Shown: piece after piece, positions 9,861-63,674 of the stretch | Position numbering within the stretch: position 1 is the stretch's first letter | Layout of the letters: each line of letters starts with the position of its first letter | The notes under the pieces: model-generated | What the model saw: the letters and a program-made list of their open reading frames with translations, nothing else | Database searches by the model: none | Told to the model about the DNA's origin: nothing | Program-made: the position numbers and the translations under genes | Source of the DNA: Candidatus Omnitrophota bacterium | GTDB lineage: Bacteria > Omnitrophota > Gorgyraeia > Gygaellales > Profunditerraquicolaceae | DNA length: 64,000 bases | Reading direction: 5' to 3' | NCBI GenBank assembly: GCA_028715785.1 | Contig: JAQURC010000006.1 | Coordinates: 21,630-85,629, forward strand

Positions 9861-9886
9861 TTCAAGAAAGGCCAGTGAGATAAAGA

Positions 9887-15551: not shown

Positions 15552-15698
15552 GTGTCATTGCCGGGAGCGCAGCGGTTGCGAGGCGAAGCCGAAGCAAACC
15601 AGCAGCCCCTCGCAACTGGATTCCTTCGCTTCGCTCGGAACAGGCTGCGCAATCCAAAGCGAGATTGCTTCGGGCACTTCGTGCCCTCGCAATGACAC
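15552..15698. repeat. Family B composite (~147 bp) with a nested variant unit
   Basis: Same outer termini (GTGTCATTGCC ... CTCGCAATGACAC). The interior contains a second unit with arms GGTTGCGAGG/CCTCGCAAC plus the GAGATTGCTTCG inner arm. Confidence 0.75.
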
Positions 15699-23026: not shown

Positions 23027-23034
23027 ATATTTAA

Positions 23035-23091
23035 GGGGACGTGCCAAAAGGGGACACCCTCTTAAAGGGTGTCCCCCAAGAGGACGTCCCC
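23035..23091. repeat. Family C nested hairpin, copy 1 (after nrdJ)
   Basis: GGGGACGT...GGGACACCCT-ctta-AGGGTGTCCC...ACGTCCCC. Outer 8-bp and inner 10-bp stems. Confidence 0.8.
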
Positions 23092-24941: not shown

Positions 24942-25014
24942 TGTCATTGCCAGGAGCGTAGCGACGAAGCAATCTAATACGAGATTGCTTCGCCCTTCGG
25001 GCTCGCAATGACAC
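24941..25014. repeat. Family B, copy 3
   Basis: GTGTCATTGCCAGG...CGAAGCAATC-taatacga-GATTGCTTCG...CTCGCAATGACAC. Begins at the mnmG stop and supplies the ATG at 25008. Confidence 0.85.
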
Positions 25015-29394: not shown

Positions 29395-29427
29395 CAAGCG
29401 TAATCAGCGAAAAGAGGAGGAATTAAA

Positions 29428-30246: not shown

Positions 30247-30269
30247 AGCGTTTACTCGGTAACCCTAAG

Positions 30270-30300
30270 ATGGCACGGTGGATTTATTCTGCCGTGCCAT
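30270..30300 (+). other. Intercistronic stem-loop between pstS and pstC
   Basis: ATGGCACGG (13-nt loop) CCGTGCCAT, a 9-bp perfect stem with no U-run. This fits a 3' stabiliser or partial terminator that gives excess pstS mRNA. Confidence 0.5.
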
Positions 30301-30310
30301 TACTCCTATT

Positions 30311-31201
30311 ATGAAGATACTGCGTTTTAAAGAAAGACTATACAAATGGATTTTTACTATCCTTGCCTTTGCTTCGCTTTTTTTCCTGATGGGCATTGTG
30401 TTAGTGCTGGTTAAAGAAAGCCTGCCCATATTCCAGAAAGTAAACTTCTTTAAATTTATCTTTGGCCGCAGCTGGTATCCTACTTATAATCCCGCGGAAT
30501 TCGGAATCTTACCTTTAATTTTAGCTTCTATTTGGGTAACTTTGGGCGCGGTTGTAGTTTGTGTTCCTTTAGGGGTTGGCAGCGCGCTTTATCTAAATGA
30601 ATTAGCCGGGAGGCGCCAAAAAGCCGTACTCAAGCCAATCGTTGAATTGTTAGCCAGCATCCCTTCGGTAGTTTTCGGATTTTTTGGCGTGGTTATACTT
30701 ACGCCTTTATTACAGAAGGTATTTCATTTACCTACAGGGTTAACTGCCTTAAATGCCAGTATTATTTTGGGGGTTATGGCTACTCCTACGGTATGCAGTA
30801 TCGCAGAAGACGCATTAAATTATGTCCCGAATGCGTTTCGCGAGGCTTCATTTGCGGTAGGGGCCACACGCTGGCAAACTTTGACTCAAGTAATAATCCC
30901 GGCAGCGGGTTCAGGAATAGCTACGGCCATAATTTTAGGGATGAGCCGGGCGATCGGCGAAACGATGACTGTGTTAATGGTTGCCGGAGGTTCAGCAGTC
31001 ATACCTCATACATTCTTAGAGCCGGTGCGGCCGATGACCGCGGCGATTGCCGCGGAGATGGGGGAGGCTCCTATGGGCGGCAGCCATTATCACGCGCTTT
31101 TTGCCATCGCGCTCATATTATTTGTGATTACATTTATATTTAATGTTATCGCCGAGATAATCAGCCGGAGTTTTAGGGTAAAGCTGGGGTTAAGCGGATG
31201 A
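30311..31201 (+). CDS. pstC: Phosphate ABC transporter permease PstC (copy 1)
   Basis: PstC-like multi-TM protein with EDALNYVPNAFREASFAVGATRWQT. The track GTG 30278 lies in the hairpin, so ATG 30311 is preferred. Confidence 0.9.
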   Translation: MKILRFKERLYKWIFTILAFASLFFLMGIVLVLVKESLPIFQKVNFFKFIFGRSWYPTYNPAEFGILPLILASIWVTLGAVVVCVPLGVGSALYLNELAGRRQKAVLKPIVELLASIPSVVFGFFGVVILTPLLQKVFHLPTGLTALNASIILGVMATPTVCSIAEDALNYVPNAFREASFAVGATRWQTLTQVIIPAAGSGIATAIILGMSRAIGETMTVLMVAGGSAVIPHTFLEPVRPMTAAIAAEMGEAPMGGSHYHALFAIALILFVITFIFNVIAEIISRSFRVKLGLSG

Positions 31202-32046
31202 AGAAAGAGTTTTCGCAAAATTTGGGATTTTTTGGTTTATTCCTCTGCATGCTTACTACCATTTTGGCCCTGGGCTCAATTATTTATTTTATCGCGGCGC
31301 GTGGATTTAGCGTGTTGAGTTGGAGTTTTCTTACCCAGGTGCCGTATTCGGCGATGACTAAAGGCGGGATTGCGCCGGTTATCGTGGGCACATTTTATAT
31401 TACTTTGGGGGCGATTATGTTTGCTCTTCCGCTGGGGATTGCTTGCGCGGTATATCTTTGCGAGTATTCACCTAAGAGCATCGTGGTAAATATTATTAGA
31501 ATCAGCATCAATAATCTGGCCGGCGTGCCATCGGTTGTCTTTGGCCTATTTGGCTTAGCGGTGTTCGTTAAATTCTTCGGTTTTGGAGTTTCCATTCTCT
31601 CCGGAAGCCTGACTTTAGGGATTTTGGCGCTGCCAATGATAATCTCCTCAGCGCAAGAGGCGCTTTTGGCCGTTCCTCAATCAATCAGGGAAGCTTCATT
31701 ATCTCTGGGGGCGACGAAATGGGGAACTATCAAAAATATCGTCTTACCTACAGCTTTGCCCGGGATCCTTACCGGTGTGATTTTAAGTATTGGCAGGGTG
31801 GCCGGAGAAACTGCACCGATTCTATTTACCGCCGCCGCCTTTTATACGCGCGGCTATCCTAAATCCGTATTTTCCGAAGTCATGGCCCTGCCGTACCATA
31901 TTTACGCGCTGATGACTGAAGGAGCGCATCCGGATAAGCAAAGAGCGATTGCCTATGGTTGCAGCTTGGTGCTTTTATTTTTGGTTTTATTTATTTCAGG
32001 ATTTGCTATATTCTTGCGTCAAAGGCAGAGGAGTTTGTATGGATAA
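31198..32046 (+). CDS. pstA: Phosphate ABC transporter permease PstA (copy 1)
   Basis: [38 protein letters not shown] overlap with pstC. Confidence 0.9.
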
Positions 32047-32800
32047 CAAGATAAAAATGCAGGCAAAAAACGTGGATTTTTTTTACGGGAAAAACCAGGC
32101 GCTAAAAAATGTCAACCTCAATGTTTATGCCAATAAAGTTACGGCGATGATCGGGCCTTCAGGCTGCGGCAAATCAACATTCATCCGTCTGTTTAACCGG
32201 ATGAATGAATTAGTCGCGCATACAACCCTTAAAGGCAAGATTTTGCTGGATGATTTGGATATTAACAGCCCTCTGGTTGATGCCGTGGATATTCGAAAAA
32301 GGGTGGGGATGGTTTTTCAGAAACCCAATCCTTTTCCTAAAACTATATTTGAAAATATAAGCTACGGTTTAAAAGTGAACGGAATAAAAGATAAAGCGTT
32401 TATTGAGCAGAAGGTTGAAGATTCCTTAAAGAAGGCGGTTATCTGGGCTGAAGTAAAGGACAGGCTTAATGACAGTGCTTTGAAATTATCCGGCGGGCAG
32501 CAACAACGTTTATGTATTGCCCGGTGTTTGGCCGTAGAGACAGAGGTAATACTATTTGATGAGCCATGTGCCAGCCTGGATCCGATATCAACCGCTAAGA
32601 TAGAGGAATTGATTTTGGAGCTTAAAAAAGATTATTCCATTGTGATTGTCACGCATAATATGCAGCAGGCAGCGCGGGTCTCTGATTATACAGGGTTTTT
32701 CCTTTTGGGGGAGTTGATTGAGTTTGGAAAAACGCAGGATATATTTACCGCTCCCAAAGATAAAAAAACCGAGGCTTATATAACCGGTAGGTTTGGTTAA
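32039..32800 (+). CDS. pstB: Phosphate import ATPase PstB (copy 1, canonical motifs)
   Basis: [43 protein letters not shown]-type Walker [12 protein letters not shown]. Start at Met 32039 (8-nt overlap with pstA); the upstream part of the track ORF is out-of-frame overlap. Confidence 0.95.
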
Positions 32801-32829
32801 ACAAGGCAACTTATTAGCGAGGTCTGATT

Positions 32830-33507
32830 ATGGAAAGACATTTTGACGTAGAGTTGGCCGATTTAAAAAGTAGTATACTTCAGATGGGTGATTTAGTGGA
32901 GGAAGCGATTATTGATTCGGTGGAGGCGCTTAAACAGTTACGTAAAGATAAAGCTGCCAGGGTGATTGCCGAAGATAAGATTGTTGATGAGTGCGAACTT
33001 AAAATTGATGAAGAGTGTCTGGATCTTTTGGCTTTAAGGCAGCCGATGGCAGTGGACCTGCGTTTTATTACCATGGCGATGAAGATCTCTACTGATTTGG
33101 AAAGAATGGCGGATCTGGCTGTGGATATCTCCCAGCGGGTGTTGGAATTAGCAGATAAGCCGCTGCTTAAGCCGCTGGTAGATATACCAAAATTAACCCT
33201 GCTTGCGCAAAAGATGACTCGTGATGCCATAAGTTCATTTGTTAATAAAGACGCGGAATTAGCCAGGATAGTAATATCGAGCGATCGAGAAGCCGATAAC
33301 CTGCGTGATCTAGTTCAACAGGAGCTGCTCAATGATTATATCTCCAAAAATAAAACAACTATTCCACGCGCTATTCCTTTACTTTTGATTGCCCGCCATC
33401 TTGAGCGTATCTGCGATCACGCCACTAATATCGCCGAAGATGTAATCTATATGGTTGAGGCAAAGGTAGTAAAACACCACCTGGAAAAATTAGATGAAAA
33501 CAGTTGA
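32830..33507 (+). CDS. phoU: Phosphate signalling regulator PhoU (copy 1)
   Basis: Two PhoU repeats, with LERMADLAVDI and LERICDHATNIAEDVIYM. Confidence 0.95.
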   Translation: MERHFDVELADLKSSILQMGDLVEEAIIDSVEALKQLRKDKAARVIAEDKIVDECELKIDEECLDLLALRQPMAVDLRFITMAMKISTDLERMADLAVDISQRVLELADKPLLKPLVDIPKLTLLAQKMTRDAISSFVNKDAELARIVISSDREADNLRDLVQQELLNDYISKNKTTIPRAIPLLLIARHLERICDHATNIAEDVIYMVEAKVVKHHLEKLDENS

Positions 33508-33569
33508 TTTAAGATGGTTGCTGCAATATTATAATGTCGCGTTGTATTTTAAAAGGAGATACTTTTAGC

Positions 33570-41186: not shown

Positions 41187-41220
41187 AAAGGTAATATAAA
41201 TATGAGCAAATGGAGGAGAA

Positions 41221-42075
41221 ATGTTTAAGAAAGGTTTGTTTATTTTAGCTTTGCTTATCTTTACGGTTCCGGCGTTTGCCGGAAAAGATAAAAATTCCAT
41301 CCAGATTAAAGGCTCGGATACTATGGTCAATCTCGGACAGGCCTGGGCAGAGAAATATATGGAAAAAAATCCCGGGGATTTTGTGGCGGTAACCGGCGGC
41401 GGCTCCGGGACAGGATTGTCCAGTTTAATCAGCGGAACCTGCGATATCGCGATGAGCTCAAGAAATATCAAGGATAAAGAGATTTCTTTGGCCGAACAAA
41501 AAGGGATTGATCCTTTTGAGATAAAAGTTGCTTTGGATGGTTTGGCGGTAGTCGTCAATCCGGCTAATCCGGTGAGCAAGCTCACAGTGGAACAGCTGGC
41601 CGGAATCTTTACCGGCAGTATCACTAACTGGAAAGAAGTGGGGGGAAAAGACGGGAAGATCGTCATTCTTTCGCGCGAAGTAAATTCCGGGACCCACGTT
41701 TATTTTAAAGAGCACGTATTAAGGAAAGGCAATGCCAACGGCAGAGAGGAATTTGCTCCCGGAGCCTTGTTATTATCTTCTTCGCAGGCGATTGCCGATG
41801 AAGTTGCCGGTAATTCCGCAACGATAGGTTATTATGGGATGGGTTATATCTCAAGCAAGCAAAAGCCCGTTGCTATTGCTAAAGACGCTAAATCCGAATA
41901 CGTTAATCCCAGTATCGAGAATGTTCTAAGCGGTAAATACCCCATATCCAGGCCGCTTTTTCTATATACTAATGGAGAGCCGCAAGGACTGATTAGGAAA
42001 TTCGTTGATTATGCCCTTTCTAAAGAAGGTCAGGATATTGTAGTCAAGACGGACTTTGTTCCCATTAAAAAATAA
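41221..42075 (+). CDS. pstS: Phosphate ABC transporter substrate-binding protein PstS (copy 2)
   Basis: GSDTMVNLGQA...TGGGSGTGLSSLISGTCDIAMSSRNIK...LSREVNSGT. Confidence 0.9.
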   Translation: MFKKGLFILALLIFTVPAFAGKDKNSIQIKGSDTMVNLGQAWAEKYMEKNPGDFVAVTGGGSGTGLSSLISGTCDIAMSSRNIKDKEISLAEQKGIDPFEIKVALDGLAVVVNPANPVSKLTVEQLAGIFTGSITNWKEVGGKDGKIVILSREVNSGTHVYFKEHVLRKGNANGREEFAPGALLLSSSQAIADEVAGNSATIGYYGMGYISSKQKPVAIAKDAKSEYVNPSIENVLSGKYPISRPLFLYTNGEPQGLIRKFVDYALSKEGQDIVVKTDFVPIKK

Positions 42076-42094
42076 TGCGAAAGTTATTAACAGT

Positions 42095-42122
42095 TGTAGG
42101 GGAGGTTTAAACCTCCCCTACA
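42095..42122. repeat. Family A hairpin, copy 3 (between pstS2 and pstC2)
   Basis: TGTAGGGGAGGTTTAAACCTCCCCTACA is a perfect 28-nt palindrome, preceded by TAACAGTT. Confidence 0.85.
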
Positions 42123-42141
42123 TTAAGGGTATCAGGCGGCT

Positions 42142-43005
42142 ATGCGGAAAATCAAGGAGTTTGTTATTGAGAAGCTAATCCTGGTCTGCGGCTTAGCTTC
42201 CATATTTTTTGTCATCCTAATTTTTTTATTTCTAACCAAAGAAGGCCTGTCCGTATTTAAATCGGTTAGTCCTTTTAATTTTCTTTTTGGCAAAAGCTGG
42301 TATCCCATCTCTGAACCGCCGCAATTAGGGATCTTACCGCTAATATTGGGTTCATTATTAGTGACCTTGGGAGCGGCAATTATTTCTATCCCTATAGGCG
42401 TAGCCTGCGCAGTTTATATCGCCGAAATCGCGCCATTAAAAATTAAAGAAATTCTAAAAGCCGGAATTGAATTATTGGCGGCTATACCCAGCGTGGTCTT
42501 AGGTTTTATTGGTATGGTAACTTTAGTCCCCTGGGTAAAGACTACTTTTCATCTGCCTACGGGTTTAACTGCCTTGTCCGGTTCGATAATTTTAGCTTTT
42601 ATGGCTATGCCGACGATAGTTTCGATTGCCGAGGACGCGCTTTATTCTGTTCCCAAAAGTTATAAAGAAGGCGCCTTTGCTTTAGGGGCTACGCATTGGC
42701 AGACAATTTACCGGGTTTTGCTTCCGGCTGCTTCTTCAGGGATAGTCGCGGCGGTAATGCTTGGTATCGGCCGGGTAATCGGCGAGACCATGGCGGTAAT
42801 GATGATTACCGGCAACGCCGCGGTCATTCCGCAGAGCATTCTTGTGCCGGTGCGCACTTTGACCGCCACCATTGCCGCGGAAATGGGCGAGGCGGTTGTG
42901 GGCAGCGAACATTATTTTGCGCTTTTTGCTATCGGCATAGTTTTATTCATCATAAGTTTTATCATCAATGTTACCGCGGACCTATTCTTGCACAAGAGGC
43001 ATTAA
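42142..43005 (+). CDS. pstC: Phosphate ABC transporter permease PstC (copy 2)
   Basis: EDALYSVPKSYKEGAFALGATHWQT. Multi-TM. Confidence 0.9.
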   Translation: MRKIKEFVIEKLILVCGLASIFFVILIFLFLTKEGLSVFKSVSPFNFLFGKSWYPISEPPQLGILPLILGSLLVTLGAAIISIPIGVACAVYIAEIAPLKIKEILKAGIELLAAIPSVVLGFIGMVTLVPWVKTTFHLPTGLTALSGSIILAFMAMPTIVSIAEDALYSVPKSYKEGAFALGATHWQTIYRVLLPAASSGIVAAVMLGIGRVIGETMAVMMITGNAAVIPQSILVPVRTLTATIAAEMGEAVVGSEHYFALFAIGIVLFIISFIINVTADLFLHKRH

Positions 43006-43853
43006 TGCGTAATACGCAAAGATCACAAAAGATCGCCTTCTTTTTTCTTTTCCTGGCTACGCTTTTAATTGTTGTGCCGGTTGGCTTGATTGTTGTGATT
43101 ATTATCCAGAAAGGCCTGCCGGCGATTAACTGGCAATTTTTAGCGGATATTCCGCGCCAGGGGATGCGCGCCGGAGGGATTTTCCCGGCGATCATCGGGA
43201 CAATTTATCTTGTTTTGGGCGCGATAATCTTTGCCCTGCCCATAGGCCTGCTGGCGGCAATTTATTTAAGTGAATACGCAAAGGACAATATTCTTAACCG
43301 CATAATCAAGCTGGCAATCGTGAATCTCTCCGGTGTGCCTTCGGTTGTCTATGGTTTATTTGGTTTGGCGCTTTTTGTGGTTTTCTTAAAATTTGGCGCA
43401 TCGATTTTATCCGGTTCGCTCACTTTAGGGATAATGATCCTGCCGATAATCATTACTACCTCCCGGGAGGCTTTGGAAAGCGTGCCGCATTCGTTTCGCG
43501 AGGTAAGCTTGTCTTTGGGGGCAAGTAAATGGCAAACCATAAGGCATATAGTTTTACCCAATGCCGTACCCGGAATTCTAACCGGGACCATTCTGGGATT
43601 AGGCCGCGCAGCGGGAGAAACCGCCCCGATTCTTTTTACTGTGGCGGCTTTTTATCTGCCGCAGCTGCCTAAATCTATTTTTGATCAGGCGATGGCGCTG
43701 CCGTATCACTTGTATGTAATTTCAACGCAGGTGCCTAATGTGGATGAAAAAATACGTTATGGCACGGCTTTAGTCCTGTTATCTTTGGTTTTGTTTATGA
43801 ATTTAGTGGCCATAATCATCCGTTATAATTTCAGAAAGAAGAAGAAATGGTAA
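43005..43853 (+). CDS. pstA: Phosphate ABC transporter permease PstA (copy 2)
   Basis: Met at 43005 (TAATG overlap with pstC). REALESVPHSFREVSLSLGASKWQT, ALPYHLYVI. The longer track ORF (42696) is an out-of-frame overlap. Confidence 0.9.
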   Translation: MRNTQRSQKIAFFFLFLATLLIVVPVGLIVVIIIQKGLPAINWQFLADIPRQGMRAGGIFPAIIGTIYLVLGAIIFALPIGLLAAIYLSEYAKDNILNRIIKLAIVNLSGVPSVVYGLFGLALFVVFLKFGASILSGSLTLGIMILPIIITTSREALESVPHSFREVSLSLGASKWQTIRHIVLPNAVPGILTGTILGLGRAAGETAPILFTVAAFYLPQLPKSIFDQAMALPYHLYVISTQVPNVDEKIRYGTALVLLSLVLFMNLVAIIIRYNFRKKKKW

Positions 43854-44593
43854 AACTTAACGCCAGGAACCTGAATATCTGGTTTGGCCAGATCCACGCT
43901 TTAAAAAGCGTGAACATCGAGGTAGAGGCCAATGAGATTTTAAGCGTAATCGGCCCGTCCAACAGCGGAAAGACCAGTTTCCTGCGCATGCTTAATCGTC
44001 TGAATGACCTGTATCCGGGTTTTAAAATGAGCGGCAGCTTAGAGTTTGATCAAGAGGATATCAGAAAAATAGATATTGAGGTTTTGCGCAAAAAAGTAGG
44101 CATGGTTTTTGCTTTACCCCTGCCCCTGCCTTTATCGATTTTTGAAAATGTGGCCTATGGGGTCAGGATGCACGGAGAAAATAACCGCGGCCGGATCTCC
44201 GGGATTGTCGAGCGTTCCTTAAAGCAAGCCTATCTCTGGGATGAGGTCAAGGACAGGTTGGATGTCTCGGCTTTTAAATTATCCGGCGGACAGCAGCAGC
44301 GTCTTTGCATTGCCCGGACCCTGGCGGTTGAGCCGGAGGTCATCTTATTCGATGAGCCTTGTTCCGGGCTTGACCCGATTTCAACCGCCAAAGTTGAAGA
44401 GGCAATGTTAAAGCTGAAAAAAGACTATACAATAGTTTTAGTAACTAACAATGTAAAGCAGGCGGCCAGGGTGGGGGACCGCACGGCTTTTTTTCTGTCA
44501 GGAGAGCTGATAGAATTGGACAAAACAGAAAAGATGTTTACGGCGCCCAGCGACCAGCGTACCGATGGCTATATTAGAGGAAAGTTTGGATAA
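43847..44593 (+). CDS. pstB: PstB-like ATPase with degenerate Q-loop and H-loop (copy 2a)
   Basis: Walker [19 protein letters not shown] replaces VFQKPNPFP. Signature LSGGQQQRL is intact. Walker [17 protein letters not shown] replaces VTHN. Confidence 0.85.
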
Positions 44594-45348
44594 TGGCGGA
44601 TATTTTAGTAAATAATTTAAATTTATGGTACGCTGATTTCCAGGCGCTGATAGGCGTAAAAGCGCATTTTACCCAAAAGCAGATTACCGCTATGATTGGG
44701 CCATCAGGGTGCGGTAAGTCGACTTTACTGCGGGTGTTTAACCGGATGAATGACCTTATCGAAGGGGTGCGCGTAGAAGGGGAAGTAATCATTGACGCCG
44801 AAAATATAATTTCCGATAAAACGGATTTAGTGGGCTTGCGTAAAAAAGTAGGCATGGTCTTTCAGCGGCCCAACCCCTTCCCGTTATCTATTTATGAGAA
44901 TATTGTTTTTGGCCAGAAGGTGCATGCCGAAGGCTTAACTAAGCTAAAACTCAATGAGATAGTTGAGGATAGCTTAAAATCCGTTCTTTTGTGGGATGAA
45001 CTTAAAGATAAGCTGAATAAATCCGCGCTGAGTTTGTCGCTTGAACAGAAGCAGCGGCTTTGCATTGCCAGGCTGATCGCGGTTAAGCCTGAGATTTTGC
45101 TGATGGATGAGCCCTGTTCGACCCTTGACCCGCAGGCAACCAGCCGTATCGAAGAATTAATGCGTGAACTTAAGAATAACTATACTATAATAATTGTTAC
45201 GCACAATATGCAGCAGGCAGCGCGCGTTTCGGACCAAACAGGTTTTATGCTTTTAGGCGAATTGGTTGAATTTGGTAAAACAGAGGATATTTTTACCCGG
45301 CCAAAAGATAAGCGGACAGAAGATTATATTACCGGCCGATACGGTTAG
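44593..45348 (+). CDS. pstB: PstB-like ATPase with degenerate ABC signature (copy 2b)
   Basis: Walker [11 protein letters not shown]-loop VFQRPNPFP, Walker [13 protein letters not shown] and H-loop VTHN are all canonical. The signature is LSLEQKQRL instead of LSGGQ. Confidence 0.85.
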
Positions 45349-45394
45349 ACACCCCGCGCTTATAAGGTATTGCGCGGGTATGGCCTTGTGGCCA
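45349..45394 (+). repeat. Family E element + satellite hairpin, copy 1
   Basis: ACACCCCGCGCTTATAAGGTATTGCGCGGGTA, then TGGCC-ttgt-GGCCA. Starts right after the pstB2b stop. The satellite abuts the phoU2 RBS. Confidence 0.8.
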
Positions 45395-45404
45395 AGGAGG
45401 ATAA

Positions 45405-46073
45405 ATGCTAAGGCATTTAGATGAAGAATTAAAGGAACTGCACAAAGATATTTTGAAGATGGCGGTATTTGCCCAGGAGTCGATATTTAAATCTATCGAG
45501 TCGCTAAAGAACCGCGATAAAAACCTGGCTCAGGATGTAATCGATACTGATAATAAGATCGATGAACTGGAGTTGGCAATCGATGAAAAATGCATTGATC
45601 TTATTGCCCGTTATCAGCCGATGGCAGGAGATTTAAGGTATATTACCACCGGGATGAAGATAAATACGGAGCTGGAGCGGATTGCCGACATAGCATTAGA
45701 TATCTCGCAAAAATCATTAGCATTGATGGATAAGCCTTTACTTAAACCATTAGTGGATATTCCCAAGCTTTCCCAGGTGGCGCAGAATATGGTTAAGGAT
45801 GCCATTGACGCATTTGTCAAAAAGGATGCCCAGTTGGCCCGGCAGGTGGTTTTAGCGGATTGCGAAGCCGACAGGTTGCGTAACCTGGTTCAGGATGAGC
45901 TGGTTAATGAATATCTGGCGCGCGATCCTAAAACCGCGGAGCGGGCGGTGGCATTATTGCTTATTGCCCGGTATTTGGAGCGTATCTGCGACCACACTAC
46001 CAATATTGCCGAAGACGTAATTTATATGGTCGAGGCAAAAGTAGTCAAGCACCATCCCGAAGAATTGAAATAA
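45405..46073 (+). CDS. phoU: Phosphate signalling regulator PhoU (copy 2)
   Basis: LERIADIALDI and LERICDHTTNIAEDVIYMVEAKVVKHH. Close paralogue of 32830..33507. Confidence 0.95.
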   Translation: MLRHLDEELKELHKDILKMAVFAQESIFKSIESLKNRDKNLAQDVIDTDNKIDELELAIDEKCIDLIARYQPMAGDLRYITTGMKINTELERIADIALDISQKSLALMDKPLLKPLVDIPKLSQVAQNMVKDAIDAFVKKDAQLARQVVLADCEADRLRNLVQDELVNEYLARDPKTAERAVALLLIARYLERICDHTTNIAEDVIYMVEAKVVKHHPEELK

Positions 46074-46084
46074 TTTCTAGTTGG

Positions 46085-46141
46085 GGGGACGTCCTCTTAG
46101 GGGACACCCTTTAAAAAGGGTGTCCCTTTTTGGCACGTCCC
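46085..46141. repeat. Family C nested hairpin, copy 2, inverted orientation (after phoU2; probable terminator)
   Basis: Its reverse complement matches copy 1 with a few substitutions. Followed by TTTTAATTT. Confidence 0.8.
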
Positions 46142-46161
46142 TTTTAATTTAATATATCCCC

Positions 46162-46190
46162 TTGACCCCTCGTATTTAGTGGTATATAAT
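46162..46190 (+). promoter_or_regulatory. Sigma-70-type promoter upstream of the Lrp-aminotransferase pair
   Basis: TTGACC (46162-46167), 17-nt spacer, TATAAT (46185-46190). Confidence 0.5.
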
Positions 46191-46260
46191 CCATTCAATA
46201 TCTGTTTAAATATTGTAAAATAATTTTTTAGGCCATTACAATAGCAAAAGGAGTGAAAAA

Positions 46261-46746
46261 ATGGATGAGATTCTAGAAATTTTAGAAAAAGACGGCCGGG
46301 CAAGCGTGGAAGATATCGCTAAAATGACCCGCAAGAATCCGGAGGATGTAAAAAAGGCGATCAAGAAATACGAAAAAGAGGGGGCAATTTTAAAATATAA
46401 GGCGGTAATCAATAAGGATTTGATTAAGGACAATGAATCCGAGGTCAGGGCTTTAATTGAGGTGAATATCATCCCCCAGAAGGACCTGGGTTTTGAGAAA
46501 ATTGCCGAGCGTATCTATTCATTCCCCGAGGTAACCAGTTGTTATTTAATCAGCGGAACATATGATTTATTGGTGGTTGTCGAGGGCAAGAACCTGCATA
46601 CGGTTTCCAACTTTGTGGCGGAGAAGCTTTCCTGTTTAGAGAATGTCCGCGGCACAGCCACCCATTTTTTATTGAAAAAGTATAAGGAAGACGGAGTAAT
46701 TTTGAAGCAGAAAGCGGAGAACAAAAGGATAGCCATATCCTATTAA
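46261..46746 (+). CDS. Lrp/AsnC-family transcriptional regulator
   Basis: HTH ILEKDGRASVEDIAKMTRKNPEDVKKAIKKYEKEG plus a RAM/ACT-like C-terminal domain. Confidence 0.85.
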   Translation: MDEILEILEKDGRASVEDIAKMTRKNPEDVKKAIKKYEKEGAILKYKAVINKDLIKDNESEVRALIEVNIIPQKDLGFEKIAERIYSFPEVTSCYLISGTYDLLVVVEGKNLHTVSNFVAEKLSCLENVRGTATHFLLKKYKEDGVILKQKAENKRIAISY

Positions 46747-46753
46747 AGGGCAA

Positions 46754-47914
46754 ATGCAAATATCAAAAGTTGTAGAAAAAATGCAGCCATCGGGCATCCG
46801 GGCGTTCTTTGATTTAGTGCTCGGGATGAAGGATGTTATATCTTTAGGAGTGGGGGAGCCGGATTTTGTCACCCCCTGGCAGATCCGTGAGGCCGGGATC
46901 TATTCCCTGGAGCAGGGTTTTACCAGTTATACCTCGAATAAAGGGCTGTATAAACTGCGTTTAGGAATCCACCGTTTTTTAAAAAGTGAATACGGCCTGG
47001 ACTATTGCCCGGATGAGGAAATATTAATTACCGTGGGAGTCAGCGAGGGCATTGACCTGCTTATGCGGGCGATCATTAACCCCGGCGATAAGATATTGGT
47101 TCCCCAACCCAGTTATGTTTCATACGGCCCGGTTACCGAGCTTGCCGGCGGCACTCCGGTTTATATCGATACCTCAAAAGATGGATTCAAAATCACGCCC
47201 AGGCTTTTAGAAAAACATATCGATAAGAAGACCAAAGGTATTGTTTTGAATTACCCCACCAATCCTACCGGTGTTTCATACCGCCGCAAGGAGCTGCTGG
47301 ATATAAATAAAGTTTTATTAAAACATAAAATACTTTGTATCAGTGATGAAGTTTATGGCGACCTGACTTATGATTTTGAGCATGTTGCTTTTCCGGCTTT
47401 ACCGGGTGCCAGGAAAAATACGGTTTATTTTAACGGATTTTCCAAGTCATACGCGATGACCGGCTGGCGCGTGGGATTTGCCTGCGGCCCGAAAGAGATC
47501 ATCGCGGCGATGACTAAAATCCATCAATATACGATTATGTGCGTATCGATCACCAGCCAGATGGCCGCGGCAGAGGCATTGGTCAGCGGCAGGAGATCGG
47601 TAGAGCAGATGAAACGCGAATATAACCGCAGGCGGGAGCTGATGACCTTTGAATTAAATTCTTTGGGATTAAAATGCTTCCGGCCGCAGGGAGCTTTTTA
47701 TGTTTTTCCCTGCATTAAAAGCGCAGGTTTGTCGTCTATGGAATTCTCGCGCCAATTATTGAAAGAGGAGAAGGTGGCGGTGGTCCCGGGAACTGCTTTT
47801 GGTCCCTGCGCGGAAGGTTATATCAGGATTTCTTACGCTTCCAGCATGGATAATTTAAAGGAAGCTTTGAATAGAATAAAAAGATTTTTAAATAGAAGGA
47901 CACCCCGCGCTTAA
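46754..47914 (+). CDS. Class I/II pyridoxal-phosphate aminotransferase (aspartate/alanine type)
   Basis: NGFSKSYAMTGWRVG (PLP lysine), NYPTNPTG; 386 aa. Confidence 0.85.
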   Translation: MQISKVVEKMQPSGIRAFFDLVLGMKDVISLGVGEPDFVTPWQIREAGIYSLEQGFTSYTSNKGLYKLRLGIHRFLKSEYGLDYCPDEEILITVGVSEGIDLLMRAIINPGDKILVPQPSYVSYGPVTELAGGTPVYIDTSKDGFKITPRLLEKHIDKKTKGIVLNYPTNPTGVSYRRKELLDINKVLLKHKILCISDEVYGDLTYDFEHVAFPALPGARKNTVYFNGFSKSYAMTGWRVGFACGPKEIIAAMTKIHQYTIMCVSITSQMAAAEALVSGRRSVEQMKREYNRRRELMTFELNSLGLKCFRPQGAFYVFPCIKSAGLSSMEFSRQLLKEEKVAVVPGTAFGPCAEGYIRISYASSMDNLKEALNRIKRFLNRRTPRA

Positions 47915-47945
47915 AGGTATTGCGCGGGTGTTGTCTTCGTAGACA
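47900..47945 (+). repeat. Family E element + satellite hairpin, copy 2
   Basis: ACACCCCGCGCTTAAAGGTATTGCGCGGGTGT, then TGTCT-tcgt-AGACA. Encodes the last four codons and the stop (TPRA*) of the aminotransferase. Confidence 0.8.
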
Positions 47946-47950
47946 AGATA

Positions 47951-48673
47951 ATGGCTGCTAAAAAAGACAATTTCCAGGTTTATGTAAAACAGATTGAGGC
48001 TATTTCAAAAGTGGCAAACCTGCTTACTTCCGGGATGTATTTGGAAGAGCTCCTGCGTTTAGTGGTGCAGGTTACCGCTGAAATTATGAACTCCAAAATT
48101 TCTTCTTTGATGCTGCTTGACCCGGAGAAAAAAGAGCTGGTGGTTAAAGCTACGCAGTCAATATCCGAGGCCTACAATAAAAAGCCTAATATCCGTTTAG
48201 GCGAAGGTATAGCCGGCATGGTTGCCCGGGAGAATAAGCCGATGTGTATCCTGGATGTTAAAAGCGATGCGCGCTATCTAAACCAGGATGTGGCTAAAAA
48301 AGAGGGCTTATGTTCTTTGGCTTGCGTGCCGTTGGCAGTCAAGGGAAGAGTCATCGGGGTACTCAACTGTTATACTTCTAAAAAGCACAAATTTTCTAAA
48401 CACGAATTGGATCTTTTGACGGCTCTGGCCAATCAGGCGGCCATTGCTATCGAAAACGCAGAGCTGGATTTACGCGTCCGCTCGGCAGAAGAGGCCCTGA
48501 CCATTCGTAAGCTGGTCGAGAGGGCAAAGGACATCCTTTCCCAGGAAGCAAACATTGCGCCTTCAGAAGCATACCGTTTGATCCAGAAGCAAAGTATGGA
48601 TATGCGAAAATCCATGCGCGAGGTGGCCGAGGCGATTATTCTGGCAAAAGATATAAGGACCAGGAAAAAATGA
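47951..48673 (+). CDS. GAF-ANTAR RNA-binding antiterminator-type regulator
   Basis: GAF domain ([17 protein letters not shown] ... VIGVLNCY) followed by ANTAR helices ([44 protein letters not shown]). Confidence 0.8.
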
Positions 48674-50355
48674 AAGATAAATCTTTGCGCCTGGCAATTG
48701 CGCAGGTAAATTCCACTGTCGGCGACCTGCGAGGGAATGCCGCTAAAATCAGCCGGTATATCGAAAAAGCAAAAGATTGCGGCGCAGATATCGTCTGTTT
48801 CCCGGAATTGGCGCTTTGCGGATACCCTCCCGAAGACCTCCTGTTAAAACCAAAATTCATCAGTGATAACCTCAAAGCCTTAAAAAAGTTGGCCAGGGCC
48901 ATAAAAGGCAATATCACCGCGATTGTAGGTTTTGCCGATGGCAGGGGCAAAGTGGCCTATAATGCCGCCGCGGTAATTTATAACCGGAAAATTAAAGGGG
49001 TCTACCGCAAGGTCCTTCTGCCCAATTACGGGGTTTTTGATGAGAAACGTTATTTTGAGCCCGGAGACAAGCCCCTGGTTTTTAAGTTTGGTGATTTTAT
49101 CTTTGGAGTAAATATCTGTGAGGACATTTGGTATCCGAGCGGCCCGACAAAATCGCAGGCGGAAGCGGGAGCAAAATTAATCCTGAATATCAATGCCTCT
49201 CCCTATTATGCGGCTAAATTCAAGCAAAGGCAGGCGGTTATTGCCGGCCAGGCCAAGAGCAACAGGGTGTTTGTGGTTTACGCTAACCTTGTCGGCGGCC
49301 AGGATGAGCTGGTATTTGACGGCCAGAGCATGATTGTCGATAATAAGGGGAAAACGCTGGCGCGCGCCAGGGCCTTTGCGGAGGATTTATTAATCCAGGA
49401 TTTAGATATTCCCGCAAGCAAGGTAAGCCCTTCTAGAAAGATAATTAGAATTTCGAACATATTGCAGCCGGCAAAGAAAAAAATAGTTACCCAGGAAGAG
49501 CCTGAGATTTTACGGCCTGTAGAAGAGATTTACCGGGCATTGGTCTTAGGATTAAGGGATTATGTGCTTAAAAACGGTTTTGGAAAAGTTATCATCGGTT
49601 TAAGCGGCGGGATTGATTCTTCTTTGGTGGCGGCGCTGGCAGTGGATGCTTTAGGTAAAGAAAATGTTACCGGCGTATTCATGCCTTCGCGCTATTCTTC
49701 CAGCCACTCACATGAAGACGCTATCATGCTAGCGAGAAATTTAGGGATTAAATTTATCACTATTTCTATCGAGCAAATATTCAAGTTTTACCTGTTGGCG
49801 CTTGAGCCGCATTTTAAAGGCCTGGGAAGGGATAGCGCCGAGGAGAACCTGCAGGCGCGCATAAGAGGTAATATCCTGATGGCTTTTTCCAACAAATTCG
49901 GCTGGCTGGTCCTGGCTACCGGAAATAAATCAGAGATGAGCACCGGTTATGCCACTCTTTACGGCGATATGGCCGGAGGGCTTGCCGTGATCAAAGATGT
50001 GCCCAAAACATTGGTTTATAAATTATCCAGGCACAGGAATTCTATCTGTCAAGTTATCCCCGAGCGCGTATTTACCAAGGCCCCTACTGCCGAACTGAAA
50101 CCAAACCAGAAGGACCAGGATACCCTGCCGCCTTATGAAATCCTGGATGCGATCCTGAAAGCCTATGTTGAAGAAGATAAGGATTTGGCAAAAATTGTCT
50201 CTTCAGGTTTTAATAAAGAAACAGTCAATAAGACTATTAGTATGGTGGATAAAAATGAATATAAACGCAGGCAGTCTCCGCCGGGTATCAAGATTACGCC
50301 CAAGGCCTTTGGCCGGGACAGGCGCATGCCGATTACCAATAAGTACCGCGGTTAG
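48670..50355 (+). CDS. nadE: Glutamine-dependent NAD+ synthetase (CN-hydrolase + NAD synthetase domains)
   Basis: N-terminal nitrilase-like domain ([21 protein letters not shown]) and a C-terminal PP-loop (GLSGGIDSS). ATGA overlap with the GAF-ANTAR gene. Confidence 0.9.
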
Positions 50356-50390
50356 AAAGATATAAAAGGCGAAAAGCAGCTGTGCAATTC

Positions 50391-51062
50391 ATGGAGTTAT
50401 TTCAAAAACTAATTAATATATTGCTTAATTTTGATACCCACCTTAGTGTCCTGATCCAGCAGTGCGGTTTGTGGACATATCTCATACTTTTCGGGGTTAT
50501 CTTTGCCGAGACCGGGTTTGTGGTAACGCCGTTTCTGCCCGGAGATTCGCTTCTTTTTGTGCTGGGCGCTTTTGCCGCGCAAGGGACATTCCATCCTTTT
50601 GTTTTGGCCGGCATCCTGATGTGCGCGGCAATATTGGGCGACAGTGTTAATTATGCCATTGGGAAATATTTGGGAAATCGCCTGGTCAACGCCAAACATA
50701 TCCCTTTTTTTAAGAAAGAGTACCTGGATCGCACCCATCACTTTTATAAAAAGTACGGCGGAAAAACTATTATTTTAGCCAGGTTTATACCCGTAGTACG
50801 GATGTTTGCGCCGTTTATAGCAGGAATCGTGCGTATGGATTACGCCAAATTCTTTATCTATAATGTAATCGGAGGCGTATTATGGGTGGCAATTTTTGTG
50901 TTCGGCGGTTTTTATTTCGGGAATATTCCTATTGTGAAAGAGAATTTTTCTTTAGTCGCGCTATTGATTATAGGTATTTCAATAATGCCGGTTATAATTG
51001 AATTTTTTAAAGCAAGAACAAGAATTAAGCAGGGAGCTAAATACGCCGCACCTTCGGAATGA
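50391..51062 (+). CDS. DedA-family membrane protein
   Basis: VTPFLPGDSLLFVLGAFA motif, multi-TM. The track start GTG 50382 is also possible. Confidence 0.8.
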   Translation: MELFQKLINILLNFDTHLSVLIQQCGLWTYLILFGVIFAETGFVVTPFLPGDSLLFVLGAFAAQGTFHPFVLAGILMCAAILGDSVNYAIGKYLGNRLVNAKHIPFFKKEYLDRTHHFYKKYGGKTIILARFIPVVRMFAPFIAGIVRMDYAKFFIYNVIGGVLWVAIFVFGGFYFGNIPIVKENFSLVALLIIGISIMPVIIEFFKARTRIKQGAKYAAPSE

Positions 51063-51134
51063 ATTTTAGTTGACAAATCCCTAAAATGTGTTAAACTTTA
51101 AATAGATTACAGCGTTGTAGTAAAAGACACAGAA

Positions 51135-51175
51135 GTCTTCTGGCAGGAAAGTTTGCCCAGAAGGCTTTTTTATTT
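51135..51175 (+). terminator. Intrinsic terminator after dedA
   Basis: GTCTTCTGGCA ... TGCCCAGAAGGC stem (one bulge, one G-U) followed by TTTTTTATTT. Confidence 0.6.
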
Positions 51176-51195
51176 GTCAGGACTAAGGCGTCCTT

Positions 51196-51241
51196 TGCCC
51201 ACCGGGGCACATCCGCGCAATACCTTATAAGCGCGGGGTGT
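51196..51241 (-). repeat. Family E element + satellite hairpin, copy 3 (inverted)
   Basis: TGCCC-accg-GGGCA, then ACATCCGCGCAATACCTTATAAGCGCGGGGTGT. This is the reverse complement of the copy 1 core. Confidence 0.8.
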
Positions 51242-51273
51242 ACCCATATGGGGCCAAAGGACGTTTTTGTTTT

Positions 51274-51319
51274 CCACCACCTGGTGGACATCCGCGCAAT
51301 ACCTATTAGCGCGGGGTGT
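51274..51319 (-). repeat. Family E element + satellite hairpin, copy 4 (inverted)
   Basis: CCACC-acct-GGTGG, then ACATCCGCGCAATACCTATTAGCGCGGGGTGT. Ends 16 nt before the sigma-factor start. Confidence 0.8.
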
Positions 51320-57468: not shown

Positions 57469-60400
57469 AACAGGCGCGTTTACCAAAAAAGCAGGGTCTA
57501 TACGACCCGCGGTTTGAGCATGATTCCTGCGGAGTAGGGTTTGTTTGCAATATCAAAGGCAAGAAAAGCCATGATATTGTTAAGCAGGGGCTGGAGGTTT
57601 TACGGCGCTTAAGCCACCGCGGAGCAACCGGCGCGGACCCTAAAACCGGTGACGGCGCGGGCCTGCTTATCCAGTTTCCTCATGAATTTTTTGTATCGAT
57701 ATGCGCGAAAGAAAAGATCAATCTGCCTAAAGAAGGTGAATATGCCTCAGGGTTAGTCTTCCTGCCGCAGGATGCCAAAGAGCGCAGGTTTTGTAAAGAG
57801 GCCTTTGAGAAAATAATTAATAGCGAAGGGCAGTTATTTTTGGGCTGGCGTAATGTACCGGTAGATAATTCTGATATCGGCCAGAGCGCCAAAGACACCC
57901 AGCCGGTGATCGAGCAGATATTTATTGGCGCTGCTGCGGTGTCATTGCGAGCCCCGAAGGGGCGAAGCAATCCAAAAGAGATTGCTTCGTCGCCTGCGGC
58001 TCCTGGCAATGACAATTTAGATAACCTGGCTTTTGAAAGAAAGCTTTATGTTATTCGTAGGCAGGTTGAAAATATTATCCGCGCCTCCAAAATAAAACAA
58101 AAAACATCTTTCTATATTCCCAGCTTGTCCGGCCGCACATTTATCTATAAGGGCCTGCTTATGCCGCATCAGGTAGAAAACTTCTTTTTGGATTTAAGTT
58201 CCCAGGAAATTAAAAGCGCTTTAGCCATGGTCCATTCGCGTTACTCTACCAATACTTTTCCCACCTGGGACCTCTCTCAACCGTTTAGATTTATCGCCCA
58301 TAACGGAGAGATCAATACTTTAAGGGGCAATATTAATTGGATGCGTGCCCGCCAAAACTTCTTAAAGAGCCAATTATTCGGCCAAGACTTAAAGAAAATA
58401 TTTCCGGTAATTGTTCCGGGCGGCAGTGATTCGGCGGCCATTGATAATGTTTTTGAGCTCCTGACCTTGTCCGGCAGAAGCCTGACGCAGGCAATCTCGA
58501 TGCTCATACCGGCTGCTTGGGAACAGAATAACCTGCTTACCCAGGAGGTAAGGGCTTTTCATAAATACCACACCTGTCTTATTGAGCCCTGGGACGGCCC
58601 GGCAGCCATGGTTTTTACTGACGGGATATCTATCGGAGCAGTGCTTGACCGTAACGGATTGCGGCCCTGCCGTTATATTGTTACCAAAGATGATTTTGTG
58701 GTGATGGCCTCCGAAGTAGGAGTTTTAGATATCGATCCTGCCAAGATCCTTCATTCAGGACGGCTTGAGCCGGGCAAGGCATTTTTTATCGATACCAAAG
58801 CCGGGTGCATAATTGAAGACAGCCGGATAAAAAAAGAGCTCAGCGAAGATAAGCCATACGATCAATGGGTTAAGAAGAATATACTGGAGTTAGACAGTTT
58901 AAAAGACAGAGGACAGAAGACAGAAGATAGAGGACAGAGGAGAGAAACAAATATTTTGACCCAATTAAAGGTTTTTGGTTATACCCGCGAAGATCTGAAA
59001 ATGATTATTAAGCCGATGGCTGAAAATGCCCAGGAACCGGTGGGCTCGATGGGCAATGATACCCCGCACGCCGTACTTTCAACCAGGCCGCAACTCTTGT
59101 TTTCCTATTTTAAACAATTATTCGCCCAGGTAACTAACCCTCCGATTGATCCTATCCGTGAGGAGCTGGTGATGAGCCTGGCCAGTTATTTGGGCCCGGA
59201 AAAGAATATTTTAAGCGATGGAGAGGACCACTGCCATAAATTATTAGTAAAACAGCCGATTTTAAACGACGCGGAATTAAAGAAAATCAGAAAAATTAGA
59301 ACAAGCGGATTTAGGACTAAAACAATCTCCATAAATTTTAAGATTTCCGAAAAGGACGCCTTCAAAAGGACATTGGAGAGAATACGTAAAGAGGCAGAGC
59401 AGGCGATATCCGCCAAAGGCGGATCCCTGCCTGTCCGGCAGGCAGGCGCCTCCGGCGGAAAAAAAGGCTATACTTTTATTATTTTAAGCGACCGCGGAGT
59501 GAATAAAGATTATGCCGCTATTCCCAGCCTCCTGGCGGTTTCAGCGCTGCACCATTATCTGGTGCGCCGTTCTTTGCGCACGCAGATCAGCATTATTTTA
59601 GAGAGCGCCGAGCCCCGCGAAGTAAATCATTTTGCCCTGCTTTTTGCCTACGGAGTTGATTGTGTTAATCCGTATCTTGTATTTGGCGCCTTGGAAAAGA
59701 TGGCTAAAGAGAAAGAATTGAACCTTGGCGCCGAGAAGGCAAAGCATAATTACATAAAAGCCATCGACAAAGGGATACTCAAAGTCCTTTCCAAGATGGG
59801 CATCTCGACTTTACAGAGTTACCGCGGGGCCCAGATTTTTGAAGCGGTGGGATTAAATAAAAGCGTAATTGATGAATATTTCACCGGCACAGTTTCCCGG
59901 ATTAACGGCGCATCTTTAGGGGTAATTGTTAAAGAAACTATTCTGCGCCATAAGGAGGCTTTTGCCGTAAGGAGCCAAGGCGAAAATCATCTGGCTTCCG
60001 GCGGCCTTTATCAGTGGAGGCGCGACGGAGAATTCCATCTCTGGAACCCGGACACGATTGCCGCTTTGCAGGATGCCGCGCGCAATAATGATGCCAAAAA
60101 ATATCAGGAGTTTGCCAGCTTAATTAATGATCAGTCAAAAAATCCGACTACTCTAAGAAGCCTGCTAAAATTTAAAATACAAAAATCTATCCCGCTAAGT
60201 GAAGTTGAGCCGGTTGAAGAAATTGTAAAAAGGTTTGCTACCGGGGCGATGAGTTTTGGCTCAATCAGCCGCGCCACGCATGAAACGATTGCTATCGCCA
60301 TGAATAGGTTAGGTGGAAGGTCTAATACTGGAGAGGGCGGCGAAGACCCCGCGCGTTTTGTTCCGTTGCCTGGCGGAGATTCTGCCAGAAGCGCGATAAA

Positions 60401-63567: not shown

Positions 63568-63674
63568 AATTCGTAACAGTTCAACTCTTGGAAGCGCTCC
63601 GACAAGATTGTAGGGCAGGTTTAAACCTGCCCTACGACGATCTCCTTCTGAAAGCTGAACTGTTACTAAAATTC
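63565..63674. mobile_element. 94-bp MITE-like element carrying a family A hairpin, flanked by an 8-bp direct repeat
   Basis: Terminal inverted repeats GTAACAGTTCA (63573-63583) and TGAACTGTTAC (63656-63666). Central GTAGGGCAGGTTTAAACCTGCCCTAC (63610-63635). Direct repeats TAAAATTC at 63565-63572 and 63667-63674; the left one contains the gltD stop codon. Confidence 0.65.

Follow-up and report, generated by a model that had tools for sequence, protein, structure and literature searches.

Family E, a structured and probably mobile two-hairpin repeat set against Shine-Dalgarno sequences in Omnitrophota

The locus and the repeat

Within the 64,000-nt stretch of Candidatus Omnitrophota DNA analysed here (the window; contig JAQURC010000006.1 of assembly GCA_028715785.1, positions 21,630 to 85,629), four copies are found of a short palindromic repeat, termed Family E (Table 1). 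Each copy consists of a bulged 10-bp core hairpin followed directly on its 3' side, in the copy's own orientation, by a satellite hairpin with a 5-bp stem and a 4-nt loop. The core, 32-33 nt long, reads ACACCCCGCGC, then a loop of 11-12 nt with GGTATT at its end, then GCGCGG(G/A)T(G/A)T; the letters of the satellite stem vary among the four copies and its pairing is kept in all of them. An earlier reading of the window, made from the letters alone (the sequence-only reading), had counted two copies on the + strand and two inverted, and this was borne out: a gapped search for CCGCGC-N8-16-GCGCGG gave four matches where 0.08 are expected in shuffles, and a covariance model of the family, run with filters off, scored copies 2, 4, 3 and 1 at 69.8, 61.7, 43.3 and 41.6 bits, the next-best match in the 64 kb standing at 11 bits. 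An ungapped 33-mer search found two of the four, because the loops of copies 2 and 4 are 11 nt and not 12 nt long.

Gene calls and Pfam likewise confirmed that copies lie at the 3' ends of pstB and an aminotransferase gene and close to the starts of phoU2, a GAF-ANTAR gene and a gene at 51335. The pstB stop codon, a TAG ending at 45348, abuts copy 1. The aminotransferase reading frame stops in the loop of copy 2, which therefore supplies the codons ACA CCC CGC GCT TAA, and the start codons of PhoU (45405), GAF-ANTAR (47951) and the 51335 gene lie 5-15 nt past the element ends. The last of these genes had been named a sigma factor; the start is in place, but its product is no more than weakly sigma-70-like, with Sigma70_r2 and r4 scores under the Pfam cut-offs. 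RNA folding of copy 1 predicts that both hairpins form and leave the Shine-Dalgarno (SD) sequence free, and the GAF-ANTAR start has no strong SD. Nearly all genes of the window are on the + strand, and the GC skew is +0.115 overall and uniform (+0.09 to +0.13) along 1-64000; therefore the whole window lies on one replichore, its genes co-directional with replication.

Table 1. Family E copies and other features of the window
Feature	Position	Strand	Description
Copy 1 core	45349-45381	+	ACAC(C)CCGCGC, 12-nt loop TTATAAGGTATT, GCGCGG GTAT; basal helix with one C·A mismatch; model match 45351-45394
Copy 1 satellite	45381-45394	+	T GGCC ttgt GGCC A; invariant 3' A is 45394
Copy 1 3' flank, outside the repeat unit	45395-45407	+	Shine-Dalgarno AGGAGG 45395-45400; PhoU start codon ATG 45405
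Copy 2 core	47900-47931	+	11-nt loop TTAAAGGTATT; loop TAA 47912-47914 is the aminotransferase stop codon
Copy 2 satellite	47932-47945	+	TGTCT tcgt AGACA; then AGATA, then ATG of the GAF-ANTAR gene at 47951
Copy 3 core	51209-51241	-	Antisense to flanking genes
Copy 3 satellite	51196-51209	-	T GCCC cggt GGGC A
Copy 4 core	51288-51319	-	Antisense; 5' end 3 nt from SD (GAGGA), 15 nt from ATG at 51335
Copy 4 satellite	51274-51287	-	CCACC aggt GGTGG
Hairpin around copy 3	51186-51262		GGACGTCCTTT...AAAGGACG, another repeat family
First pst operon	29400-33510		pstS-C-A-B-phoU
Second pst operon	41200-46075		pstS-C-A-B-phoU
Leader of the 51335 gene	51070-51186		TTGACA-16 nt-TG-TAAACT, then hairpin and T-run
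Second hairpin family	939-975, 9821-9857, 42095-42131, 63609-63645		TGTAG(G/C)GGAGGTTTAAACCTCC(C/G)CTACA
Third family	10759-10833, 15649-15697, 24942-25014, 57923-58014	both	Inverted motifs GTGTCATTGCGAG...GAAGCAATC
Fourth family	23029-23091, 46085-46148		GGGGACACCC-loop-GGGTGTCCCC and GGGACGTCC motifs

Conserved fold and covariation

The two-hairpin fold was tested as ((((.((((((...........))))))))))(((((....))))) on 131 distinct sequences. Pairing is found in 98.4% of cells, and 13 of the 15 pairs have changes on both sides (all five in the satellite, eight of ten in the core); no shuffle among 500 equalled the observed pairing or covariation, and every slid register collapses. As the alignment had been fitted to the model, independent checks of the satellite and the helices were made. 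A perfect 5-bp Watson-Crick satellite hairpin abuts the core in 117 of 148 non-redundant copies, against a mean of 1.4 and a maximum of 5 in shuffled flanks, and a comparable hairpin stands on the 5' side of the core in seven copies only. When the element was scanned with its flanks for mutual information, all five pairs of the satellite came out, together with pairs 6-28, 7-27 and 8-26 of the core, and nothing else; a pseudoknot or loop-loop contact, also considered, does not appear. Even within one locus the core stems covary (CCGCGC, CGGCGC, CGACGC, CAACGC, TGGCGC and TGGCCC, each with its complement), and copies at orthologous sites differ by 25 compensated changes and four wobble changes, with no broken satellite pair. 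Such covariation is what structured cis-regulatory RNA motifs display. The case for the structure rests on these comparative data because the z-scores of single-sequence folding are modest, from -1.0 to -2.5.

The sequence-only reading had described a satellite on the same side of every copy, always complementary, and had taken its compensatory variation to imply selection on the structure itself. That inference holds in the larger sample, where satellites are neither mismatched nor absent at most copies. The further statement that the satellite stems differ completely does not hold: they share the consensus T-R-Y-C-Y / R-G-R-Y-A and fall into 32 recurring types among the 117 copies. Satellite type is linked to loop length, as expected for subfamilies.

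Constancy is not confined to the helices. The C after ACAC is bulged in all copies, and the loop, left unconstrained in the scan, has the consensus T-W-A-W-N-N-G-G-W-A-T-T, with G18, A20, T21 and T22 almost invariant among the matches listed; the invariant unpaired bases are the bulged C and loop A14, G18, A20, U21 and U22. Such a core, bulged and with invariant loop bases, is presumably recognised by some factor in a sequence-specific way. The structure is specific to one strand: A-U closes it in 62 copies and G-U in 33. Non-Watson-Crick pairs are G·T in 63 cases and A·C in 10 where a copy lies in sense to its gene context, against 4 and 5 where it lies antisense (Fisher p = 0.009), and both antisense copies of the window have one change that is C·A on their own strand and G·U on the mRNA strand, which for the mismatch of copy 3 is the + strand. 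This G·U bias goes with the transcribed strand, an argument that the fold is of importance in RNA too.

The satellite loop ends in GT and its 3' arm usually begins with RG (window 45388-45391 and 47938-47941), so that GT[AG]G is found in about 70% of copies. These are the letters of the tag of REPs (repetitive extragenic palindromes) associated with RAYT enzymes, here in another structural position, the junction of satellite loop and 3' arm.

Occurrence in Omnitrophota

A scan of one genome per species with a loose pattern gave mostly chance matches in GC-rich genomes, which were reused later as a negative control; among these species-representative genomes there were 17 true Family E matches, 15 of them in genomes labelled Candidatus Omnitrophota or Omnitrophica. 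A metagenome scan in which the two stem arms were fixed and the loop left free yielded at least 120 loci, nearly all of the matches listed being true members. The covariance model, built from 49 sequences, finds 201 copies in 0.84 Mb of Omnitrophota loci, a sample seeded by the search, and three matches, each of at most 25 bits, in 727 kb from other phyla that share the crude pattern. The window itself fits this distribution, its PhoU being 78-92% identical to proteins whose sources name Omnitrophota and its flanking proteins 86-94% identical to those of one locus (L065) from an Omnitrophota metagenome-assembled genome. Three loci of about 20.7 kb chosen through phoU contain three canonical copies and some five variants, and extrapolation suggests a copy number on the order of 100 per genome. 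Viral contigs gave one chance match and plasmids none, and exact look-ups of two of the window's proteins matched no record.

No Rfam family matches anywhere in the window at gathering thresholds, and a permissive scan (E <= 10) around copy 1 returned noise only. In the literature on Omnitrophota or Omnitrophica repeats, REPs, RNA motifs and hairpins no description of the family was found, and the element goes unmentioned in a 2026 preprint about intergenic features. Family E is apparently an undescribed repeat of about 47 nt and two hairpins, almost confined to the Omnitrophota.

Placement relative to genes

When the neighbours of each copy were classified by simple calls based on open reading frames (ORFs), and both neighbours were called, both genes were co-directional with the element at 108 copies, the downstream gene alone at 11 (divergent neighbours), both were antisense at 13, and three copies lay between convergent genes. 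The downstream gene is therefore sense in 119 cases and antisense in 16, about 88% sense (p about 1e-20). The distance from the satellite end to the start codon has a sharp peak at 11-14 nt. In 89% of copies the satellite is followed by A, and in about 60% GGAGG comes next; typically the satellite abuts an AGGAGG that is the SD of the next gene. On the other side, an upstream stop codon ends no more than one base from the element's first base in some 20 cases, and in 12 cases the upstream ORF enters the element and stops at the TAA of its loop. Placement 5' of an SD-type sequence thus goes with gene-sense orientation and a near-fixed distance to the start, and this combination, which the sequence-only reading had not seen, is the most distinctive property of the family.

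The genes downstream belong to 59 unrelated families among 75 SD-adjacent copies, and in this set there is no consistent link to one gene family or pathway of the kind expected of a riboswitch or leader. Many are housekeeping genes, among them DnaK and the Pfam-confirmed L16, L20, L28, S6, EF-Tu, NusA, SSB, PGK and an ArgH-type lyase, and some carry a copy in several genomes far more often than expected by chance: dnaK (4), pgk (3), argH (3; 42-58% identity) and rpsF (3; 43-46% identity). The predicted accessibility of the ribosome-binding site is 0.517 with the element, 0.511 with the element deleted and 0.473 with it shuffled (p = 0.003). The idea that the element exposes the ribosome-binding site found no support, accessibility being predicted the same with the element as in its deletion. 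A promoter or terminator was also considered and set aside, as consensus scans put neither signal on the elements.

Insertion polymorphism and nesting

Comparison of orthologous junctions between genomes whose flanking proteins are 85-93% identical revealed many pairs of filled and empty sites, including those of window copies 1, 2 and 3. The site of copy 2, filled in the window and occupied by a compound form in locus L244, is empty in L207, L124, L065, L243 and L247; there the aminotransferase gene overlaps the GAF-ANTAR gene in TAATG or TAGTG. At the site of copy 1, L243 has a variant with a different, still complementary core stem (CAAACC/GGTTTG), and L244 and L247 have nothing. The pst operon is moreover doubled in the window, the two versions sharing 70-80% DNA identity, and Family E is found in the second only; the paralogous pstB1-phoU1 junction is a plain 29-nt spacer. 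Copy 3 sits in the loop of a hairpin of another repeat family and is absent at the orthologous place in L154 and L247, both of which have that hairpin uninterrupted. Copy 4, the other antisense copy, is kept at the orthologous place in L154, its satellite differing by one compensated and one wobble change. Upstream of cysK the second hairpin family of Table 1 stands in Family E's place in L194, the Family E copy being found in L224.

At least 13 complete units are nested within other copies, in the same orientation and in the outer copy's loop just before the conserved AATT. These nested insertions delimit the unit, which begins with the first base of (A/G)CACC and ends with the A that follows the satellite, and they carry both satellite arms, so both arms travel with the unit; AGGAGG is absent after nested and internal copies and therefore belongs to the target. 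Copies also form tandem arrays of direct repeats, with up to five in one cluster, and one 9.5-kb locus holds 13. The filled and empty alignments and the nested insertions reveal no terminal inverted repeats of the kind that define MITEs (miniature inverted-repeat transposable elements) apart from the hairpin arms, and no evident target-site duplication save an ambiguous 1-3 nt, the borders being precise.

Two further observations come from L243. Its junction at 13470-13500, counted as empty, contains AGACAAGATAATG, identical to the satellite 3' arm and flank of the filled sites (window 47941-47953; L244 at about 13228-13240) and encoding there the aminotransferase C-terminus; it could be a deletion footprint or a microhomology used at insertion. 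The rule that AGACAAG at this junction had suggested, that the satellite is an inverted copy of the target, was rejected in general because nested units bring both arms into a known target and most empty sites have no arm. In the pstB-phoU spacer of the same locus (9842-10000) an insert of about 95 nt, with inverted repeats of its own, lies between the two copies of a 15-nt direct repeat, TTGTGCTCAAGGAGG, and a different element appears to have landed at the SD beside the Family E variant.

A proposed mode of spread and its alternatives

With moderate confidence, we read Family E as a non-autonomous, phylum-specific mobile hairpin repeat, about 47 nt long, which is transcribed together with its genes and whose fold is maintained in the RNA. 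The reading starts from what has been observed: the copies belong to one family nearly restricted to the phylum, their structure covaries, they have a characteristic orientation and position, their insertion is polymorphic, and they nest. The conserved hairpin (ACAC, bulged C, 6-bp GC-rich stem, 11-12-nt loop) would be recognised by a trans-acting factor, and in the second (5 bp and a tetraloop, followed by the invariant A) the fold alone is conserved. The whole unit would insert strand-specifically, by transposition rather than by recombination or slippage, into sites that include the spacers between stop codon and SD and hairpin loops, both those of other copies and at least one that is unrelated. 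Nested copies lie before AATT after the loop GG, and most others 5' of an SD-type sequence. Because landing is in the gene-sense orientation, the mRNA would carry the unit directly 5' of the ribosome-binding site, folded into two hairpins that are self-contained, and selection would keep both intact on the transcribed strand. At the least, folding would keep a GC-rich half-stem from interfering with the ribosome-binding site.

The host might also use the hairpins as an mRNA-end or processing and stability module, for instance at the operon junctions of highly expressed genes, which seems rather improbable. A bolder version, in which the core is the site of a dedicated Omnitrophota ribonuclease or RNA-binding protein and the mobile unit has been adopted as a genome-wide punctuation or expression cassette, is unlikely; if it were true, a cassette before the SD would separate cistrons, set mRNA ends and tune dozens of housekeeping genes, amounting to a post-transcriptional regulon able to transpose, in a phylum whose members are ultra-small and uncultured.

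Several points weigh against a mobile element with a folded transcript. Given the lack of terminal inverted repeats and target duplication, recombination, slippage or gene conversion could also have spread the copies. The sequence-only reading had proposed looking for RAYT or TnpA(Y1) genes, and none came to light: at E values under 0.4, neither E. coli RayT nor consensus RAYT and IS200 probes, the consensus being validated by finding RayT at E = 3e-10, matched anything in the window or the 1.6 Mb collected, some 0.85 Mb of Omnitrophota DNA with the element among it. Genes on the minority strand adjoin only four copies, and the + strand of the window is at once the coding strand and the G-rich leading strand; gene-sense and replication orientation are not separable here, and since the orientations of transcription and replication coincide, the strand bias could reflect the biology of single-stranded DNA and not of RNA. 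The wobble test in antisense copies rests on nine non-Watson-Crick pairs. Lastly, both collection scans demanded the canonical stem sequence, so the apparent invariance of the core is partly built in.

The strong sense orientation and the near-fixed spacing to SD and start codon would also suit a dedicated cis-acting RNA module of the host that is not selfish DNA at all, a possible but doubtful alternative. An Omnitrophota RNA-binding protein or ribonuclease would bind or cut the core and so punctuate polycistronic mRNAs or set mRNA ends, the core shielding the 3' end of the upstream cistron and the satellite capping the downstream 5' end with the SD free, and copies would have spread by duplication and been kept for their function. 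That the same housekeeping genes carry copies across deep divergence with their changes compensated, that EF-Tu, L16, L20, L28, S6, NusA, SSB, DnaK and PGK lie downstream, that the G·U bias is on the transcribed strand in antisense copies too, and that so many unpaired bases are invariant all speak for such a module, and the conserved G-N-A-U-U resembles the sequence that RNase E prefers, R-N↓W-U-U. Nevertheless, sites are gained and lost between relatives at 85-93% protein identity and the paralogous pstB-phoU junction is without the element; nested insertions split the outer loop, which would be unexpected of a functional site; about 10% of copies are antisense; there is no regulon-like tie to particular genes and no predicted gain in ribosome-binding-site accessibility; and unrelated hairpin families occupy the same junctions in other genomes.

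The insertion polymorphism that counts against a host module would be equally at home in a classical REP family moved by a RAYT enzyme (Y1 HUH) on single-stranded DNA hairpins, the strand bias being that of the lagging-strand template and any RNA effects incidental, an account that we think unlikely. Like REPs, commonly defined as imperfect palindromes of 20-40 bp that are extragenic and numerous in the genome, Family E has a short GC-rich core (32-33 nt, four copies per 64 kb), with a conserved extrahelical base and several hairpin families in the same genome; its structure is strand-specific, it enters hairpin loops, and it leaves no evident target duplication. IS200/IS605 elements use the lagging-strand template, and the structured strand is here the G-rich + strand, which is that same template (GC skew +0.115). 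The GT[AG]G letters are present in most copies at the satellite loop/3'-arm junction, but the unpaired GTAG or CGTC tag of REPs is missing from the palindrome foot, whose ACAC/GTGT ends are base-paired, and from the flanks. The units are direct repeats and not inverted pairs, they lie upstream of start codons and not downstream of genes, the wobble bias flips in antisense-context copies, and neither the window nor the 0.85 Mb of element-bearing DNA, where a REP-flanked RAYT should be enriched, yielded a RAYT/IS200 homologue. Of the two possibilities named by the sequence-only reading, a hairpin for a REP-associated or IS200-type enzyme and an RNA element, neither is confirmed by itself: filled and empty sites, nesting and arrays are the marks of mobile DNA, no Y1/RAYT gene turned up in the DNA searched and several defining features of REPs are missing, and the G·U bias on the transcribed strand speaks for the fold in RNA.

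A double-stranded DNA operator, an intrinsic terminator, an antiterminator target of ANTAR proteins, the attC site of an integron or a CRISPR array in degenerate form, which the palindromic core, the copy 5' of a GAF-ANTAR gene, the position of copies between co-oriented genes as with attC sites and the 46-49-nt period of the tandem arrays might call to mind, are very improbable, as compensatory changes within one genome and G·U pairs point to a folded single strand and not to a duplex bound by a dimer, the hairpins lack a following T-run and are not called by the terminator scan, loops of 11-12 nt and 4 nt are unlike the paired hexaloops of ANTAR targets, Rfam gives no match, the neighbours are housekeeping genes and not cassettes, and the array "spacers" are identical with no cas genes seen.

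Other repeats and leaders in the window

Family E is accompanied in the window by at least three other sets of repeats. The second hairpin family is intergenic and lies just upstream of genes, one example preceding an ORF at 42142, and the third consists of inverted motifs in both orientations. The fourth shares with Family E the foot ACACCC/GGGTGT and gives weak model matches of 9-11 bits; its copy at 46085 is directly 3' of phoU. The leader of the 51335 gene has a promoter-like sequence followed by a terminator-like hairpin and T-run, both kept in L154, L243 and L247; it may represent a regulatory leader or an attenuator that has nothing to do with Family E.

Implications

The Omnitrophota are abundant, uncultured and very small bacteria, and we know of nothing reported on the control of their gene expression. 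The covariance model and the more than 200 examples provide a resource, describing as they do a phylum-specific structured element before the ribosome-binding sites of many core genes, and in annotation the model flags such sites, including those where the element rewrites a gene's C-terminus and stop codon. Family E is also a sensitive marker of Omnitrophota DNA in metagenomes, and the repeated insertion of a stable two-hairpin module between stop codon and SD is a natural experiment on operon expression. Should a mobilising enzyme or RNA-binding partner be found, the REP-like picture would extend beyond the Proteobacteria, to elements tied to Shine-Dalgarno-like sequences.

Comparison with known systems

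A close likeness is to the REPs and bacterial interspersed mosaic elements (BIMEs) of Proteobacteria, which are also short (about 32 nt), GC-rich imperfect palindromes, extragenic, multicopy and of several families per genome, are probably co-transcribed, vary in their sites between relatives, and have neither terminal inverted repeats nor evident target duplication. In REPs one end of the palindrome has an unpaired tetranucleotide, GTAG or CGTC, and the units are mostly paired in opposite orientation, as BIMEs or REPINs (paired REPs), and lie downstream of genes or between convergent genes (Di Nocera et al. 2013, PMC3733652). Family E, by contrast, is without that tag and has a second hairpin conserved in structure only; its clusters are direct tandem repeats and not inverted pairs; it stands before the SD and start codon in the gene's sense, whereas REPs stand after genes or between convergent ones; no RAYT gene was found for it in the window and the 1.6 Mb searched; and it belongs to another phylum.

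MITE-like repeats such as the Correia or nemis elements of Neisseria and the enterobacterial repetitive intergenic consensus (ERIC) are likewise non-autonomous, lie beside coding regions and are transcribed as hairpins whose orientation matters for the mRNA. Correia/nemis and ERIC elements are 100-150 bp long, with terminal inverted repeats and a target duplication, whereas Family E, at about 47 nt, has neither and is far more tightly coupled to the SD. The mycobacterial interspersed repetitive units (MIRUs), reportedly described by Supply et al. in 1997 as tandem units of 46-101 bp with small ORFs, resemble Family E in occupying the intercistronic spacers of operons, in being oriented with transcription, in their direct tandem arrays and in ends that touch the upstream stop and the downstream start. 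Family E, however, is mostly present as one copy per site and is defined by a covarying structure, as MIRUs are not.

With the subterminal hairpins of IS200/IS605 elements, their miniature derivatives, the palindrome-associated transposable elements (PATEs), and insertions of the IS1397 type in REP loops, Family E shares a strand-specific imperfect hairpin with an extrahelical base, oriented insertion, no evident target duplication and a preference for targets that are single-stranded or lie in loops, among them those of other repeats. It differs in having no tnpA or tnpB nearby and one conserved hairpin instead of distinct left and right ends, and its conserved flank (A, then GGAGG or ATT) is 3' of the unit, whereas IS608-type targets are 5' of the element. 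The RNA targets of ANTAR proteins are two hexaloop hairpins with A at position 1 and G at position 4, the second competing with a terminator; Family E loops are of 11-12 and 4-5 nt with no terminator after them, and an ANTAR gene was noted beside just one of about 200 copies. Small structured interspersed repeats are a known kind. What sets Family E apart from REPs, MITEs and MIRUs is that it is built of two modules, is direct and sense in orientation, adjoins the SD, nests within itself and belongs to another host phylum.

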